This document shows, piece by piece, positions 39,490 to 54,623 of a stretch of 64,000 bases of DNA. The notes beneath the pieces are model-generated. The model made no database searches, was not told the origin of the DNA, and worked only from the letters and a program-made list of their open reading frames with translations. The position numbers and the translations under genes are program-made. This DNA comes from Candidatus Freyarchaeum deiterrae (GTDB lineage Archaea; Asgardarchaeota; Jordiarchaeia; Jordiarchaeales; Jordiarchaeaceae), in NCBI GenBank assembly GCA_037305845.1, contig CP147778.1:1824001-1888000 (forward strand). Reading direction: 5' to 3'. How positions within the stretch are numbered: position 1 is the first letter of the stretch; each line of letters opens with the position of its first letter.

Positions 39490-40639
39490 ATGTGGAAACT
39501 AATTCGCCCTGATGCGTATAGAGTTTGGAATGATAGTATTGTTCGAGAAAGGCTTTGGAGATACTACGAGGTATTTAATAACAGACTCAACGCCAAGTTT
39601 TTAATTGCTTTGAAAGTGGGTGCAGATGTGGAACTAGATGCTGAATCGGGTAAGCTCTGGAGTGTACACGATAAAACTAGTGGCATATTCAGAGGCCTCT
39701 TGAAACGTGTTGACACAGGTGAAGTAAAATTAGATGATATGGACTCACCGAAGATTTCTTATTTAGATCTAAAGGTTGAACTTGCCCGTAGAATTCTATC
39801 CGAGTGCCATTTCTGTGAAAGGCGGTGCGGAGCTAACAGATTAGAGGACAAGAAAGGATTTTGTAAATTAGGAAGCGCGTCTTATGTATCCACGGCTTTC
39901 TTGCACACTGGTGAGGAAGCTCCCTTAGTTCCATCCGGCACAAACGCTTAATGAGCATTGCTCTAGCGGTGCATTCTTCTTCTCCAGTTGCACGTTTAAA
40001 TGTGTATTTTGTCAGAACTACGATATTTCAACAAATCCGAAAAGCGGTATTGAAACTTCAGGAGAAAGTCTTGCACGAATAAGTAGAGACTTGAGAAGAG
40101 AGGGTGCAAGAAATGTAAATTATGTGGGCGGGGAGCCAACACCCAATACTTACAACATTTTAAAAGGTATCAGGGAAACCAAAACAAACGTTGCTCAACT
40201 ATGGAATTCTAACATGTACTGCTCTAAAGAATGCATGAAACTTCTGCTAGATGTTATGGATTTTTGGCTTCCAGACTTTAAATATGGAAACGACCAGTGC
40301 GCCGAAAGATTAAGCAAAGTTTCGAATTATTGGGAAATCGTCTCCAGAAACCATAAGATGGCTTACGATGAAACCGTAGAAACCGGAGCGTCAGGTATGA
40401 TCATAAGACACCTAGTTTTACCAAGTCATATCGAATGCTGTACCAAACCGGTTCTTGAGTGGATAGCTAAAAACTGCCCAAAGGCTTTGGTTAATATCAT
40501 GGAACAATATCATCCTACACATGAAGTATCAGGAAACAAGGAGTTCATGGACATAGATAGAAAAGTCACTCATGAAGAGATGGAAGAGGCGTACAGGACC
40601 GCTGATGAATTGGGAATTATCTGGCAACCTGTATCTTAA
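39490..40639 (+). CDS. PflX-like radical SAM protein, intron-split: join(39490..39943,39975..40639), 372 aa
   Basis: Splicing gives HTGEEAPLVPSGTIFFSSCTFKCVFCQNYDIS (CxxxCxxC), in frame with the 40091 ORF (VGGEPTP, WNSNMY, PDFKYGND, IIRHLVLP). Confidence 0.92.
39944..39974 (+). other. 31-nt BHB intron in the radical SAM mRNA
   Basis: G-GCAC-AA^A-CGCT...AGCG-GTGC-AT^T-C; contains an in-frame TAA and shifts the frame. Confidence 0.9.
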
Positions 40640-46140: not shown

Positions 46141-47451
46141 TTATACCTCATTGAATTGCATAATTTTTAGATTTACGGGTTTCTTTGTAATGTTTTCCTG
46201 TCGCACACCTAAAATGTATTCCGCACCTTTTTCTTGGGATATGTCCACTAACCTCTGAGTTATTATGCCGTCAAGAATAATGGCTTTCACCGAGTTCATT
46301 TCTTTCAGACTCTCTGCCAGTGAAGATACTTCTATTTCTTTGATTAACTCGAAGTTCTCCCCCAAAAGTACAGCTTTATTAGAAGAGGGAATACCTGACA
46401 AATGGCTCAAAATTTGCTCAGGAAGTTTAGGTTTCGGAGGGGCTTCCACCTTTTTATATCTCTTTACCTCTTTTTCTCTTTCTTTTCCCTTTTCTTTTTC
46501 CTTCTCTTTTTCTTTTTCTCTTTCTTTTCCCTTTTCTTTTTCCTTCTCTTTTTCTTTTTCTCTTTCTTTTCCCTTTTCTTTTTCCTTCTCTTTTTCTCTT
46601 TCCCTTTCCTTCTTTTTAGGTTCTTCTGATTCTTCTTGTTCTATAGGCAGTTTATTTCTTAATGCTTTAACCACTTCTTTTTGGCTGAGCTCTTCGACTT
46701 CTCTGCCTGGAGGGGCACGAGCTATGTAAGCTATGTCCGCTATTTGTTGGAGTTCTTTTAGAATCAAGTCTCCTCCCCTATCTCCATCTAGAAATGCTGT
46801 AATTGATTTTTTCTTACTGAGCTCAGTTACAGTCTTTGGTACACTCGTACCTTCAACTGCTACCACGTTCTTATAACCACATCTCAAAAGATTAAGAACA
46901 TCAGCTCTTCCCTCTACAATTATTATGTCATCAGAGGCATCAATACTCGGTCCAGCAGGCAGCTCTTCAGGACCGTATTTCTCGATTTCAGCGACTCGAA
47001 CAGCGTCCATAACCTCATCAGTGATCTGTTGGCTTTCAGGTGACACGTCTTCGGACCATTTTCGAATAATATCCGCCGCTCTTTCTACAATCTTCTTCCT
47101 TTTAACCTCACGAACATCTTCGATTATCTCTAGAGTTGCATGAGCTGTACAGGGTCCGACTCTATCCACGGTTTCCAGCGCAGCAGCTAACATCGCTGTC
47201 TCCACTTTATCCAAACTTGAGGGAATTATCACCGTTCCAGTTGATTTACCCGCTTTTGATTCTATGGTCACTCTTATTCTGCCTATCCGACCCGTTCTCT
47301 GAAGCTCACGTAGATCAAGCTCAGCTCCCAATAAACCTTCAGTCTGTCCAAAAACAGCTCCAACCACATCTGGTTTTTCAACCACACCGTCTACATCTAC
47401 TTTAGCTTTTATAATATATTTTGTCGTGCTAAATTCATTCTTATTAACCAT
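46141..47451 (-). CDS. dnaG: Archaeal DnaG (TOPRIM; exosome-associated primase-like protein)
   Basis: [28 protein letters not shown] and DGDRGG motifs. Confidence 0.96.
46469..46594. repeat. Three exact 42-bp tandem repeats encoding the Lys/Glu linker of DnaG
   Basis: TCTTTTTCTCTTTCTTTTCCCTTTTCTTTTTCCTTCTCTTTT at 46469, 46511 and 46553. Confidence 0.92.
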
Positions 47452-48165: not shown

Positions 48166-49296
48166 TCACCGTGTTACTATTGCCTTTTTTAAGGCTTCAA
48201 GAAGGTCGTGTGCTTCATTGTTTTCTTCAAAATGCCTCCTAACATTTTCCAATAGATTAATGAGCGCCTCCGCAGTGGCTTGCTTCAAATCCATGGGATG
48301 AAGATTACCACCAGCATAAGCTGATTTCAATTCGTCAAAACTCGTAAAGTCCACAGGCCCTCCGAATTTCTCCTTACGTTCCACATGAAGCTTAGAACCA
48401 TCTCTCGAAAGAAGGAGAAGCCTATTTATCTCGATTATCGGATTAAACTCCAACTGTTTCGGTGGGCAAAAAGCCGCTCCAATCTTCGCCCTTATATCCT
48501 CCGGCGTATCATGGATAAAAACAGCGGTCTGAGGCTTAGATTTCGACATCTTAGCCTCCATTAAAGCATCCTCATCCTCCTCCTCTCCCCCCTTTTTAAC
48601 ATCCATTCGTGATAAGCCCTGCAAACCAATCAGAAGAGGTGTATGAATAGCCACAGGCTTCCAATCCAAACCCAACTTGGGAGCCAACTCCCTAGCAAGT
48701 ACATGAGCCCTCCTCTGATCAGTTCCCCCCAAACACAACTTAAAACCAGAATACAAAATATCAGCAACCTGAATACAAGGATAAAGCGTTTTAGAATAAT
48801 CAGACTCCGCCTCATCCACCTTACGGCCCATAATACTCATAGCCCTCTTAACACGAGCAAGAGTAATATTCTTAGCAACATTAATCACCGTCCCCCAATA
48901 ATCCAAATCATCCATAAGATCCTCTGCTCTCTCAAACTGAACCCTCCCAGTATCTATACCCAGCGACTCCAAACAGTGCTCAATGTACCTCGCACACATG
49001 TGAATAGTATCCATGTCTCCACCAAACTTGTCATTAATCTTAGCATGCCAAGTTGCCTCGAGAACATGCACATCAGCATCAGCCAGAACCAAATCCTGAA
49101 GCTTCCAAGCCCAAACCACCCAACCTATATGAAATATTCTGGAACCATTAGGACAACTAAAGGCTTATCCAGAAGGCTCAACACCAATATAGGCTTTAGG
49201 ATGGCTTTCAACCTCAAACAAACTCTGCAAATCCTCAACCGTAACAACCTCATCCAAGCCACGCGAAACCATCTGAACCTTTTCCTCAGTATCCAT
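48166..49296 (-). CDS. tyrS: Tyrosine-tRNA ligase, intron-split: complement(join(48166..49136,49167..49296)), 366 aa
   Basis: GGAGG precedes ATG 49296. Splicing gives AYIGVEPSGLFHIGW (HIGH-type motif). YPCIQVADI, GGTDQRRAH and KMSKS lie downstream. Confidence 0.95.
49137..49166 (-). other. 30-nt BHB intron in tyrS mRNA
   Basis: T-CTGG-AT^A-AGCC...GGTT-CCAG-AA^T-A; the unspliced RNA reads an in-frame TAA just after the 5' junction. Confidence 0.88.
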
Positions 49297-50439: not shown

Positions 50440-51816
50440 ATGAAACTCCCAAAAGAAAATACAAACAATAAAAAGTCGAAAGCAGGGACACCACCCGCAC
50501 CACCGACATCACCCGCGGCAGGGACACCACCCGCACCACCGACACCCCTCGAAGGAAATCTAACCTTCGAAGCAAAGACACCCCCCGCAGCAACGCCAAC
50601 CCCCGAAGCAAAATCAATAATGGACGGTTATTCCGAAGAAGATAAAAAGTTAATAGAATTAATAATAGAAGTATATTCCCAAAATTTTATAGAAAAATTT
50701 CCTAAAAGAAAGAAGGAGGAGGAGGAGAGGGAGAAGAAGAAGTTAACGGAGGAGGAGAAGGAGGAGGCGAAGGGGAAGATCGAAACACTATTACTTATAT
50801 TGAGAGAGGAGGAGGAAGAGCAGGAGAAGAAGCAGAAGGAAAAGGAGGAGGAGAGGGAGAAAAAGAAGTTAACGAAGAAGCAGAAGGAGGAGGAGAAGCA
50901 GAAGGAGAAGGAGAAGGAGGAGGAAATGAAATCTCCACTGCGTGGACTTGCTTTGCTCTTTTTAGACTACGAAAAAGTCGAAAAGAAATATTTGCCCAAA
51001 CAAGAAAAAATAGAAGAAATAACGGGTAAAGGGGGACAAGAGGGGAAAGATCTCTATGAGTATATAAAAAATGAAATTTATGGAATCACAATTCATAAAC
51101 TAATATTAAAAATTTATGATCAGCGTCTCGAGAGAGTAACTGAAAGAAAGGAAAGAATCAATAAGAAATTGGACGAAATGGAAGACAAGAGTTACGGTTG
51201 GGTTGCTAAAAATTCCAAGAGATTATTTTGGATCGGTGTAGCTATTGTTTTTTCATCTATACTTATACCCTTAGGAGTTTGGATTTTATCCTCTTGGACA
51301 TTTTGGCAATTACTTAGTACTATTCCAGTATACGCACTAATTGCAACATCCACATCAACACCAGCAATATACACAACATTACCTGCAATAATCACATCAT
51401 TACCCTGGCAACAATTAAATAACACATCCCTAATCTCAGGAGGAATAGGCGGAACAGTAGGCCTAAGCACTATAATTACAACCTTGATTAAAGGAGCATT
51501 CCAAGAAATAAAGAGCGCCTCATTAGACAGAGTCCAAGTTACACTACTCCAAGATGCGTATCGTGACAAAATCAGGAAGATAACAATACAACTAGAACGA
51601 GATCTATACGATATAGTTGAAGAGAATCCGGCAAAGAAGAAAACGGAAGAGGAGAAAAACAATCAATGGAAGTATTTCTTTGATGTGGAAAAAAAATTTT
51701 ATCAAGATGAAGCTCAAATATATGAAGAATTAGCAAACGATCTACAAAAATACGTCGAAGGCATTATAAAAACCGAAAAGAGTAACAACAAAGATAGTAA
51801 CAACCAAAAAGAGTAG
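50440..51816 (+). CDS. Hypothetical membrane protein with Pro-rich repeats and Lys/Glu coiled-coil tracts
   Basis: AGTPPAPPT twice, KE-rich repeats, central hydrophobic segments; GAGGCGG upstream. Confidence 0.75.
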   Translation: MKLPKENTNNKKSKAGTPPAPPTSPAAGTPPAPPTPLEGNLTFEAKTPPAATPTPEAKSIMDGYSEEDKKLIELIIEVYSQNFIEKFPKRKKEEEEREKKKLTEEEKEEAKGKIETLLLILREEEEEQEKKQKEKEEEREKKKLTKKQKEEEKQKEKEKEEEMKSPLRGLALLFLDYEKVEKKYLPKQEKIEEITGKGGQEGKDLYEYIKNEIYGITIHKLILKIYDQRLERVTERKERINKKLDEMEDKSYGWVAKNSKRLFWIGVAIVFSSILIPLGVWILSSWTFWQLLSTIPVYALIATSTSTPAIYTTLPAIITSLPWQQLNNTSLISGGIGGTVGLSTIITTLIKGAFQEIKSASLDRVQVTLLQDAYRDKIRKITIQLERDLYDIVEENPAKKKTEEEKNNQWKYFFDVEKKFYQDEAQIYEELANDLQKYVEGIIKTEKSNNKDSNNQKE

Positions 51817-51984: not shown

Positions 51985-53601
51985 TCAGGTACCCTCAGCC
52001 CAACCATGAATATACGCATCCTGCTCTGGAGTCAGAACATCCAACTTAAGACCCATAGCCGCGCACTTTAATTGAGCCACAGTATTATCAATCGCTTCGG
52101 GAATATCCAAAACAACACTGCCCATCTTAGACAAAGACTCCCTGTTCTTGACAATATACTCTACCGCCAAAGCTTGGTCTGAGAAGCTCATGTCCATAAC
52201 CTTACCAGCCACATGCATAGTAAAAACTCCCAAAGGTGTTGGTTTATTGTGGGATGACATTTTTTGATTTGACTCAGTATCCCTCTGCTTAACACTTCTA
52301 CATAATGGTGTTAAGGGAGAACTAGAAATACTGGTCCACAATCCGCCACCACAGCAAGTTCACACATCTAGAAGTTTTAATTAAACATGTGGTCACTGGG
52401 GTGCCCCTCTGCACAAGCTAGATTCACAAGTCTGCCTTGTCCGAGTAGGTAAATTTTTCTTCCGTCTTTCATTGTGTATTCGTCGACTAGTGGTCTCAAC
52501 TCTCGTTTGCTGACACTGAGTTTCTCTAGGTCCGGTATGTTTATTTCGACATTGAAGTGCCCAGTGTTACAAATTGTCGCCCCGTTTTTGAACTTCTTCA
52601 TATGCTCTGCGTTAACCACGTTTTTACAGCCCGTAGCTGTGACGAAGATGTCGCCTACCTCAGCGGCTTCTATCATGGGCATCACATCGAATCCCTCAAG
52701 TGCAGCCGTTAGCGCTCTGTGTGGGCTAATCTCGCAGATGATAACTCTTCTGGCGCCTAGTCCCTTGGCTCTTATCGCTACGCCTCTACCGCAATGACCA
52801 AAACCAGCGACTACAAAAACTTTACCTGCTATAAGATCCGCTGTTGCTCTTAGTATGCCGTCGATGGTGCTTTGTCCGGTTCCCCACAGGTTATCAAATT
52901 TGGGCGCAAACACTTCAGCGTTTACGTTTCCCATTTTGTGGGGGTGTCGTTAGTGGCTAAAATCGGATAGAGTAATACATTATCTTTGGCCATAGCCCTC
53001 AACCGAACAATTCCGGCCATATGTTTAATAAAAACTCTCAGGGGCATTAATGATTTAACATATGGATTCCGGTCGTGGTTTCTTCGGCTCCGGCCCATAC
53101 GGTGTCTGCCCAGTCTTTTTTTTCTCCTAGGATTTTTTTGACTATTTTTATTTCTTCTCCTGTTTCTCCTCTTTTCAGTTTGATGAGTGTTGATACCAGG
53201 TCGGCGCCGTCGTCCAGAGTAATGTTGGGTTTCGCTTTGATTACGTTGGCTATTGCTCTGTAGTAGCCTTCGTGGTCCATTCCTTTCCAGCCGTAGGTGG
53301 ATATGCCTTCTTTTACCAGAGCTGCGACGACGTGGTCCTGTGTTGATAGTGGATTAGAAGCGCATAGGTAGACCTCAGCGCCGCCTGCTTTCAGGGTTTT
53401 CGCGAGCACCGCGGTCTCCTTGGTTAAGTGGAGGCATGCTCCCACTTTCACGTTTTTGAGTGGTTTCTCTTTGGTGAATCTTTGTTTTACTTGCATGAGT
53501 ACCGGCATGTGTGCTTCTGCCCATTCTATTGTGCTCTGTCCGCTTGGCGCCAATTTCATGTCTTTGACTTCGTATTTTTCTCCTTTTTCTGTTTGTGACA
53601 T
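51985..53601 (-). CDS. ahcY: Adenosylhomocysteinase, four exons: complement(join(51985..52202,52394..52898,52928..53010,53067..53601)), 446 aa
   Basis: Spliced product reads [10 protein letters not shown]...SNPLSTQD...DDGAD...[13 protein letters not shown]...[18 protein letters not shown]...[21 protein letters not shown]. Exon lengths 535+83+505+218 = 1341 nt. Confidence 0.95.
52203..52393 (-). other. 191-nt BHB intron 3 of ahcY
   Basis: ACC-CCAG-TG^A-CCACATG...CATGTGG-CTGG-TA^A-GGT; splicing restores H-P-S-E-V-M-D. Confidence 0.93.
52899..52927 (-). other. 29-nt BHB intron 2 of ahcY
   Basis: AA-TGGG-AA^A-CGTAAACGC...GTGTTTGCG-CCCA-AA^T-TT; splicing restores K-W-E-F-D-N. Confidence 0.93.
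53011..53066 (-). other. 56-nt BHB intron 1 of ahcY
   Basis: A-CCGG-AA^T-CCATATGTT...AACATATGG-CCGG-AA^T-T; splicing restores T-T-T-G-I-V-R-L. Confidence 0.92.
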
Positions 53602-53720
53602 TGTTTTTTTCACTCCTTTGTGGGGTGTTTTGTCTTTCTTTTATGGGTTTAGTCTTATAAAAGTTATATATTTGGGTGTGGATAGTTTGCACATGGATAG
53701 GCGTATTTTGTGTGGTTTTT

Positions 53721-54623
53721 ATGCTGTTGGATGCTGTTGAGAAGGCGGTTTTGAATCTTCTGTTAGAGGATTCTTCTCTTGGGATTGTGGGTTTGGCGGG
53801 GAGGCTTGGCAAGAGTCGTAATCATGTAGCCAAGCTGGTTAATCAGTTGTTTGAGAAGGGGGTTTTGAGGAGCTATAGTGTGGTTTTGAATCCTCTGAAA
53901 ATATTGTATGATCGTAGCATTTTTCTGTTTGTTAAGACTAATCCTCATGAGAATGCTATTGTTAGGGGCTTGTTGAGTCTCCCGGAGATTCAGGTTCTTG
54001 ACGGGATTTCTGGTGAGTATTCTCTTTTGGGTTTGTATCGTTTCCGGTCTCCTTCGGAGTTTTCGTCTTTTCTTTCCGGGCTTGATCGGTTGATGGTTGT
54101 TTCGAGGTTTAAGAAGTATCGTTTGGTGGAGGTTTTGGCTACTTTTAAGGAGTCTGGGTTTACTGTTCCGGAATCTAAGGGTGAGTCTTCTGTTCTTTCT
54201 GAGTTTGATTGGAAACTGCTTGGTGCTCTTAGGCAGCAGGTGGTTCGTACGCCTTATTCTCAGACCGATATAGCGAAAATGTTGGGTGTTTCGCAGCCTG
54301 TTGTTTCGAGAAGTATCTCAAAGCTGCGGAGCGAGAATGTGATTATTGGTTATACTGCTCGTATAAATTTTTCAGCAGTTGGTTTGGAAGCGAAGTTTTA
54401 TTTAGAAATTAGAGTTGATCCGCGTTCCTATCTTTCAGTGGCTAAGAAGCTTTGTGAGTTTGATGAGGTGTGGAGTTTGTATCGGTCTGGTGAGGAGTAT
54501 GGTTTGATGGCTGTTATTCGTGTGAGAGATATTAAACACTATAATCAGCTTCTGCTGAAGATTTTTGAAATGGATGATATTATAGATACTTATTCCAGTG
54601 TGGTTTTTCAGGAATGGATGTAA
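53721..54623 (+). CDS. Lrp/AsnC-family regulator with tandem HTH+RAM units
   Basis: Two HTH-RAM modules (ISGEYSL, RSGEEYGL); divergent from ahcY. Confidence 0.85.
   Translation: MLLDAVEKAVLNLLLEDSSLGIVGLAGRLGKSRNHVAKLVNQLFEKGVLRSYSVVLNPLKILYDRSIFLFVKTNPHENAIVRGLLSLPEIQVLDGISGEYSLLGLYRFRSPSEFSSFLSGLDRLMVVSRFKKYRLVEVLATFKESGFTVPESKGESSVLSEFDWKLLGALRQQVVRTPYSQTDIAKMLGVSQPVVSRSISKLRSENVIIGYTARINFSAVGLEAKFYLEIRVDPRSYLSVAKKLCEFDEVWSLYRSGEEYGLMAVIRVRDIKHYNQLLLKIFEMDDIIDTYSSVVFQEWM

Follow-up and report, generated by a model that had tools for sequence, protein, structure and literature searches.

Transposon-derived inserts with bulge-helix-bulge geometry interrupt the SAH hydrolase gene ahcY of the Asgard archaeon Candidatus Freyarchaeum deiterrae

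Splicing of bulge-helix-bulge (BHB) introns from archaeal mRNA rests, in the literature searched, on two cases: the cbf5 pre-mRNA intron of Crenarchaeota (Watanabe 2002; Yokobori 2009, PMC2738675) and one 5' UTR intron of Haloferax, HVO_1309 (PMC7714728). For Asgard archaea, the accessible parts of two sources (Valentin-Alvarado 2024, PMC11291895; Goswami et al. 2026, bioRxiv 10.64898/2026.10.13.758758) deal with tRNA introns only. In its accessible text the 2026 preprint gives no general route by which introns arrive, terming this the central open problem, and it cites tRNA intron transposition in Thermoproteales (Fujishima 2010), where related introns are found at different loci. A mobile source of introns is described in eukaryotes, in the form of the Introner elements of Micromonas and other lineages (Huff et al. 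2016, as covered in the accessible part of the review PMC11282704). A search that left most subscription papers outside its reach found nothing relevant on ahcY introns or on BHB introns derived from MITEs, and in the literature searched neither the MITE described below nor its 7-bp duplication or transposase partner turned up in any paper.

The genome of Ca. Freyarchaeum deiterrae is one contig of 3,576,204 bp, and ahcY is on the minus strand within the window analyzed here (the whole stretch of 64,000 nucleotides, positions 1,824,001 to 1,888,000 of CP147778.1 in GCA_037305845.1). Unlabeled coordinates are those of the window. The gene reads as four exons and three inserts, as follows.

53610..53616, minus strand: Shine-Dalgarno-like GGAGTGA upstream of the ATG at 53601, read from the sequence
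53067..53601, minus strand: exon 1, 535 nt, Met1 to the first base of Ile179, with motifs CLH56, LDDGAD129 and EETTTG173
53011..53066, minus strand: intron 1, 56 nt, aa179 phase 1, BHB helix CCGG/CCGG, bulges AAT/AAT
52928..53010, minus strand: exon 2, 83 nt, Ile179-Glu206, including Lys204 of the K..FDN motif
52899..52927, minus strand: intron 2, 29 nt, aa207 phase 0, BHB helix TGGG/CCCA
52394..52898, minus strand: exon 3, 505 nt, Phe207 to the first base of Glu375, NAD-binding domain
52203..52393, minus strand: intron 3, 191 nt, aa375 phase 1, BHB helix CCAG/CTGG, bulges TGA/TAA
51985..52202, minus strand: exon 4, 218 nt, stop included

The joined exons comprise 1341 nt, encoding 446 amino acids plus a stop with no internal stop codon, which bears out the four-exon gene proposed in an earlier note made from the window sequence. 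The rebuilt AhcY aligns with 0 gaps in 446 columns and 72% identity to intronless orthologs, so the gaps at the junctions that the note had set as a check do not occur; the intronless orthologs themselves match solved SAHases at E 1e-148. The predicted spliced product is a full-length SAH hydrolase with its catalytic motifs. Exon 2 translates as (I) plus 27 residues, the same as read before, and does encode the segment between ETTTG and FDN. It was, however, wrongly described as invisible to ORF calling, as it falls inside a 58-aa ORF (52922-53098), and public gene calls have a 41-aa gene without Pfam match at this exon in four of five contigs. The nearest ahcY relatives are records labeled Jordarchaeia/Freyarchaeota. 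Across the whole gene pN is 0.08-0.10 and pS 0.56-0.67, with pN well below pS in every exon, a pattern indicating purifying selection on all of them. Assembly error is rejected as the source of the inserts because 1617 of 1617 bases agree in four independent sequencing-run assemblies. Convergent with ahcY is a 458-aa low-complexity membrane-protein ORF (50440-51816, plus strand), and farther along, a DnaG-like ORF carries a tandem Lys/Glu-rich repeat (46402-46629, minus strand).

All three insert lengths are 3n+2 and break the frame. The earlier claim that AhcY requires three splicing events has good support at the sequence level. Each junction shows a 4-bp Watson-Crick helix, two 3-nt bulges and an intron stem of at least 7 bp. 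With cuts placed behind base 2 of the bulge, as the established rule for EndA has it, a strict BHB is found at exactly one position within +/-10 nt of each insert, and the same position restores the frame; a random position passes this strict test about 1-2 times in 100,000. The intron-side helix has 7/7 pairs in introns 1, 2 and 3 (predicted pairing probability 0.89-1.0). The exon-side helix has 1, 2 and 3 adjacent pairs respectively, the relaxed form at introns 1 and 2, and for the central helix of intron 1 pairing is predicted with a probability of only 0.28, an exon-exon fold being in competition with it. The inserts thus classify as BHB introns on all sequence tests but the exon-side helix. 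The protein reads G-I-V at the intron 1 junction (53005-53010) and G-V-I in relatives, and the exon may here have adapted to the A-rich bulge. One RtcB and two paralogs of EndA, one of them with Tyr/His/Lys-type motifs, are encoded in the host genome. In the proposed course of events, the pre-mRNA would fold three BHB motifs, EndA would cut after base 2 of each bulge, and RtcB would join the exons; splicing of the ahcY pre-mRNA in this manner is very probable. Two other intron classes were considered and rejected: group I/II or homing-endonuclease introns (no Rfam match, no intron ORF, too short) and spliceosomal introns (ends TC..AA and AC..TA, not GT/GC-AG, in an archaeal host).

The main point, missed by the earlier note, is that two of the three introns have a transposon origin. 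Introns 1 and 3 resemble each other at their ends and by sequence similarity are assigned to a family of ~185-bp MITEs with terminal inverted repeats and no coding capacity. The parts of the two introns and the autonomous partner of the family are as follows; labels beginning with G or L denote genomes and loci of the comparison set.

53066..53072, minus strand: intron 1 target duplication, 5' copy, CCGG+AAT, providing a central-helix strand and the first bulge
53017..53065, minus strand: intron 1 core, 49-bp internally deleted MITE with both inverted-repeat ends present
53010..53016, minus strand: intron 1 target duplication, 3' copy, 7/7 identical, providing the second helix strand and bulge
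52209..52392, minus strand: intron 3 core, 184-bp full-length MITE
L321/L322:2375-4018, L325, L326, L330, L331, L298: 1.64-kb insertion sequence

The intron 3 MITE has 70-75% identity to copies at unrelated places in relatives, two of which are in the congener G005 (70-73% over the length of the intron), and the 3' end of the intron 1 MITE matches a G005 copy at 22/24 positions and the autonomous element at 21/24. About 45 dispersed copies, mostly intergenic, are present across four congeners, and outside the genus no similar number of copies was found. The genome under study has just two copies, both within ahcY. A 7-nt target duplication is perfect in 19/51 copy rows and matches at 6/7 in another 12/51, while other duplication lengths (4-6, 8-10) yield 0-1 perfect cases among the same rows. 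The flanks of intron 3 (52393-52399 and 52202-52208) match at 4/7 positions and probably represent a decayed target duplication. Intron 2 was also tried as a MITE and rejected, with flanks matching at 2/7 and no family match.

The autonomous element (1644 bp) shares the MITE ends. Its DDE transposase is divided between two ORFs of about 276 and 246 aa, and their meeting point, an A7 run, suggests programmed -1 frameshifting. Copies of the element are linked to a target duplication only across contigs, of 7 bp once and 6 bp once. In common with IS256/Mutator-like DDE insertion sequences, the partner transposase has a CxxH-type motif and weak matches to the MULE, IS256, ISH6 and IS66 models. All of these matches are below curated cut-offs (for gene pieces and a distant intact relative, the scores are 23-27 bits where the cut-off is 150). 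With its two ORFs at the A7 run and its 7-bp duplication, the element also differs from those sequences, and it is left unclassified. Searches for the partner transposase in this genome, and for transposases of its family in viral contigs, found none. Two other elements were seen in the same material. One, an insertion sequence of 1876 bp (L319:962-2837, G002:C197), is intact and encodes a related transposase of 545 aa, but has different inverted repeats and an 8-bp duplication. The other is a second, unrelated MITE family of ~180 bp with a 9-bp duplication, located inside a decayed transposase (L298:1850-2033; L259).

A BHB half consists of four helix and three bulge bases, seven in total; therefore, a 7-bp duplication beside inverted repeats amounts to a splice site. 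In the proposed mechanism, a non-autonomous MITE (~185 bp) would insert such that the 7-bp target duplication abuts its terminal inverted repeats, an arrangement seen in the sequence. Where the target begins with four self-complementary bases, its two copies would pair as the 4-bp central helix, with the remaining three bases as bulges and the inverted repeats as the intron stem. EndA-type cutting would then take out the element together with exactly one of the two duplicate copies, restoring the pre-insertion sequence. This geometry is observed directly for intron 1 and for two inserts described below (ahcY aa370 and tRNA-Arg). It probably also applies to intron 3, the helix of which is two transitions away from a palindrome: CCAG/CTGG is reachable from CTAG/CTAG with pairing kept, and CTAG/CTAG occurs at the intron 3 site (aa375) in another family. 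A self-pairing tetramer is found in 4/58 orientations in intergenic copies, which is the chance rate, whereas the helix is fully paired in 5/5 in-gene MITE copies. The contrast speaks for selection acting once an element has inserted and not for targeting, with insertions in genes presumably surviving only at self-pairing tetramers. Inserted elements would subsequently shrink by internal deletion. Intron 1, with a core composed only of the two MITE ends (49 bp), would be such an intermediate and probably a step toward the ~30-nt size class. Helices would then drift by compensatory change, and some ~30-nt introns may be the result. Taken as a whole, the explanation that DNA transposition made introns 1 and 3 and that ahcY is a working four-exon gene is likely to be correct.

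Introns 1 and 3 are absent from five of five congeners and from the closest relative (92% identical), and also from the intron-2-bearing relatives wherever the site is covered; they appear to be recent insertions. The same MITE subfamily (97/99 support) makes up BHB inserts at ahcY aa370 and aa321 in two sister lineages, with the palindromic targets GCGC and GGCC, and another member is in a tRNA gene:

L365:2501-4066; L373; L368-L370: relatives with MITE-derived aa370/aa321 inserts plus 30-31-nt aa373 inserts
L183:1501-1687 (G005:C104); also L200: MITE in the anticodon arm of tRNA-Arg(CCT), in a gene with two further introns

The aa370 insert of the closest relative is 188 nt, with a 181-bp MITE copy and a 6/7 duplication. 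The aa321 insert in the third lineage is 195 nt, and its helix has drifted to GGCC/GGCT. Thus, the three sister lineages, which group weakly (85/67), each carry this MITE subfamily, at an ahcY site that differs from one lineage to the next. In tRNA-Arg(CCT) of G005, a 187-bp MITE copy is flanked by GCGC+AGG twice, giving a perfect 7-nt duplication and BHB. ARAGORN detects this tRNA only once the MITE is removed, and the insertion site is empty in the Ca. F. deiterrae genome.

Intron 2 has a different distribution, being present in five congeners, eight further genus-level contigs and one sister-family genome, at 23-34 nt and with an invariant helix. In its alignment 94% of cells are paired, with covariation not above the shuffle control. 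Intron 2 therefore seems to be older, and its origin does not appear to be covered by the MITE route. In a survey of 301 Asgard genomes plus follow-ups, BHB inserts were found at nine ahcY positions (174, 179, 207, 209, 321, 325, 370, 373 and 375) in six families, with position 375 used in four; most sampled Asgard ahcY genes are uninterrupted. Three introns in one archaeal mRNA had been thought highly unusual, but this number is exceeded in another Asgard family:

L052/L055, L051/L054 (G050, G065): ahcY with five BHB inserts (aa174, 209, 321, 370, 375), leaving a 15-nt exon

Several multi-intron genes were mis-called by automatic spliced alignment and were resolved by hand. The insert sites cluster (p about 0.01) in four conserved blocks, EETTTG, K..FDN, GHFNVE and EGHPS, which hold the residues corresponding to human Glu156, Lys186/Asp190/Asn191, His301 and His353. 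The exon helix strand is palindromic in at least one carrier at 5/9 ahcY sites, compared with a background of 5-11% (p 3e-5 to 2e-3, the sites being partly dependent), and three sites are common to MITE-sized and short inserts. The palindrome excess and the sharing of sites by both sizes therefore suggest that some short ahcY introns are shrunken elements. However, the MITE route is not general, because helices are non-palindromic at sites 174, 207, 209 and 325, and in most of ten other candidate inserts in the Ca. F. deiterrae genome. Inserts outside ahcY in this genome (G000:C1) are listed below.

49137-49166 of the window, minus strand: tyrS, 30-nt BHB insert in VEPSG^LFHIG with helix CTGG/CCAG; the frame is restored when it is removed
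G000:C1:1483446, minus strand: cbf5, 32-nt perfect BHB insert between bases 1 and 2 of the catalytic Asp codon
G000:C1: 987065, 1125569, 1152345, 2285374, 1619887, plus strand: 28-39-nt inserts
G000:C1: 1589381, 1472189, 1452824, ~2337560, minus strand: 28-39-nt inserts

The position of the cbf5 insert is the same as in Crenarchaeota. The 28-39-nt class includes frame-restoring BHB-like inserts in putative HD-domain, alba, hdrC-like, endoQ-like and gatE genes, as well as inserts in a putative rtcB (relaxed BHB), a ferredoxin gene and two unnamed genes. The ferredoxin insert has a perfect 7-nt repeat and is one further candidate for the MITE route. A radical-SAM insert candidate at 39944-39974 of the window fails the strict BHB test. 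A homology-free genome scan for frame-restoring BHBs, which is too noisy for a census, gives an excess only in the 27-36-nt class (9 vs 2 and 3), and hits of a generic scan for direct repeats plus hairpins are for the most part due to chance.

Among ~506 sampled orthologs (438 kb aligned), ahcY holds 3/5 introns found, in a homology census that takes in 800 kb of one relative and is blind to introns that this relative also has and to those close to the ends of genes. atpB, enolase and gatB are uninterrupted in 24 genomes with interrupted ahcY, the five-intron family included. Thus, ahcY is an intron hot spot across Asgard archaea, and the clustering may be due to local hopping of elements, to a scarcity of splice-competent sites, or to selection for spliced expression. 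The earlier note proposed that splicing could act as a control point on the SAM/SAH cycle. On this reading the introns would be kept for that reason, which is compatible with transposon origin; AhcY output could be tuned, for example, if EndA/RtcB activity were limiting or if a junction were modified in a SAM-dependent way. The hot spot with its nine sites in six families, the three intact control genes and the ahcY share of the census introns all speak in its favor, as does the negative-regulator role proposed for the cbf5 intron (PMC2738675). However, introns 1 and 3 stem from recent transposon insertions that the congeners and the closest relative lack, intron positions and numbers shift between sister lineages, most sampled Asgard ahcY genes are intronless, and unrelated genes of this genome carry BHB inserts too. 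Likewise, the introns have no Rfam match at E<=5, riboswitches and known ncRNAs included, and no C/D guide RNA with a C box targets the cut site at any junction. The control comparison is itself a biased sample, as the 24 genomes were picked for their ahcY introns and three genes only were compared. An Lrp/AsnC-type regulator gene (53676-54623, plus strand), divergent from ahcY and its neighbor in relatives too, is a candidate for ordinary regulation. Control of the methylation cycle through ahcY splicing is thus speculative and on balance unlikely. Eukaryotic SAM synthetase is under splicing-based control (MAT2A/METTL16), which offers an analogy only.

Spread at the RNA level would dispense with a DNA transposase, as excised introns would be reverse-spliced into BHB-like sites and fixed in DNA, the course suggested for intron transposition among Thermoproteales tRNAs. 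Elements are found at the exact positions (321.0, 370.1, 375.1) of unrelated short introns in distant families, which suggests site choice at the RNA level, and all in-gene copies come from one subfamily. However, an excised intron would bring its own 3' helix strand and bulge, whereas the 3' flank varies from site to site and copies the local target, as a duplication should. This route is largely refuted by the match of flanks to target; in addition, the majority of copies lie between genes and show 7-bp duplications but no BHB, and a transposase-bearing element with the same ends exists. We consider RNA-level spread very improbable. Finally, that the inserts are not spliced, with ahcY a transposon-killed pseudogene, a set of separate fragments or a case of ribosomal bypass, would suit the three or four ORFs with start codons given by gene callers and a four-exon reading that is sequence-based, but it is hardly credible for the sole copy of the gene in the genome, with purifying selection in all exons, a precise BHB at 3/3 junctions, an intron 2 kept with invariant helix across the genus, and fragments that would break inside the EETTTG, K..FDN and GHPS motifs.

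DNA transposition followed by splicing is therefore retained as the explanation for introns 1 and 3, and the ahcY locus offers a concrete, testable route for the arrival of archaeal BHB introns. Several stages are caught here, namely a full element, an internally deleted element and a compensated helix, along with empty and filled sites. What is new is the MITE origin of introns 1 and 3, the building of the BHB by the duplication, and the transposase-bearing partner. In practical terms, Asgard genes may be intact even where the annotation has them as split or partial. On a broader scale, it is possible, though we hold this only tentatively, that Asgard archaea have an Introner-like system, in which insertion sequences with 7-bp duplications become introns at palindromic tetramers, shrink to ~30-nt hairpins and are the source of a sizeable share of mRNA and tRNA BHB introns, with ahcY collecting them, possibly through selected spliced expression.

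The ahcY introns share with those of cbf5 and HVO_1309 the short BHB insert in an mRNA, the tRNA-splicing endonuclease type and the placement in a conserved motif. They differ in that three are found in one frame, that the host gene encodes a metabolic enzyme, that two come from a DNA transposon family, and that splicing at ahcY is predicted from the sequence. The Asgard tRNA introns, as far as the accessible text of those sources describes them, are alike in lineage, BHB motif and repeated gain, and one MITE copy is itself in a tRNA-Arg. Compared with the transposed introns of Thermoproteales, the MITE is mostly intergenic, makes target duplications and has a transposase partner. The likeness to Introners, as the accessible part of the review presents them, is that an inverted-repeat MITE becomes an intron upon insertion and that target duplication supplies part of the splice signal. 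Unlike Introners, however, the ahcY introns would be removed by EndA/RtcB, acting through RNA structure, with no spliceosome involved. The duplication furnishes both cut sites and the inverted repeats furnish the stem, the duplication has to be 7 bp long and include a palindromic tetramer, and in-gene copies are few, with two in one gene here, rather than thousands. In the closest prokaryotic relatives of eukaryotes, DNA transposons thus appear to have given rise to mRNA introns without a spliceosome, in parallel to Introners. The ahcY introns are cbf5-like in removal and Introner-like in origin, but are not Introners by definition.
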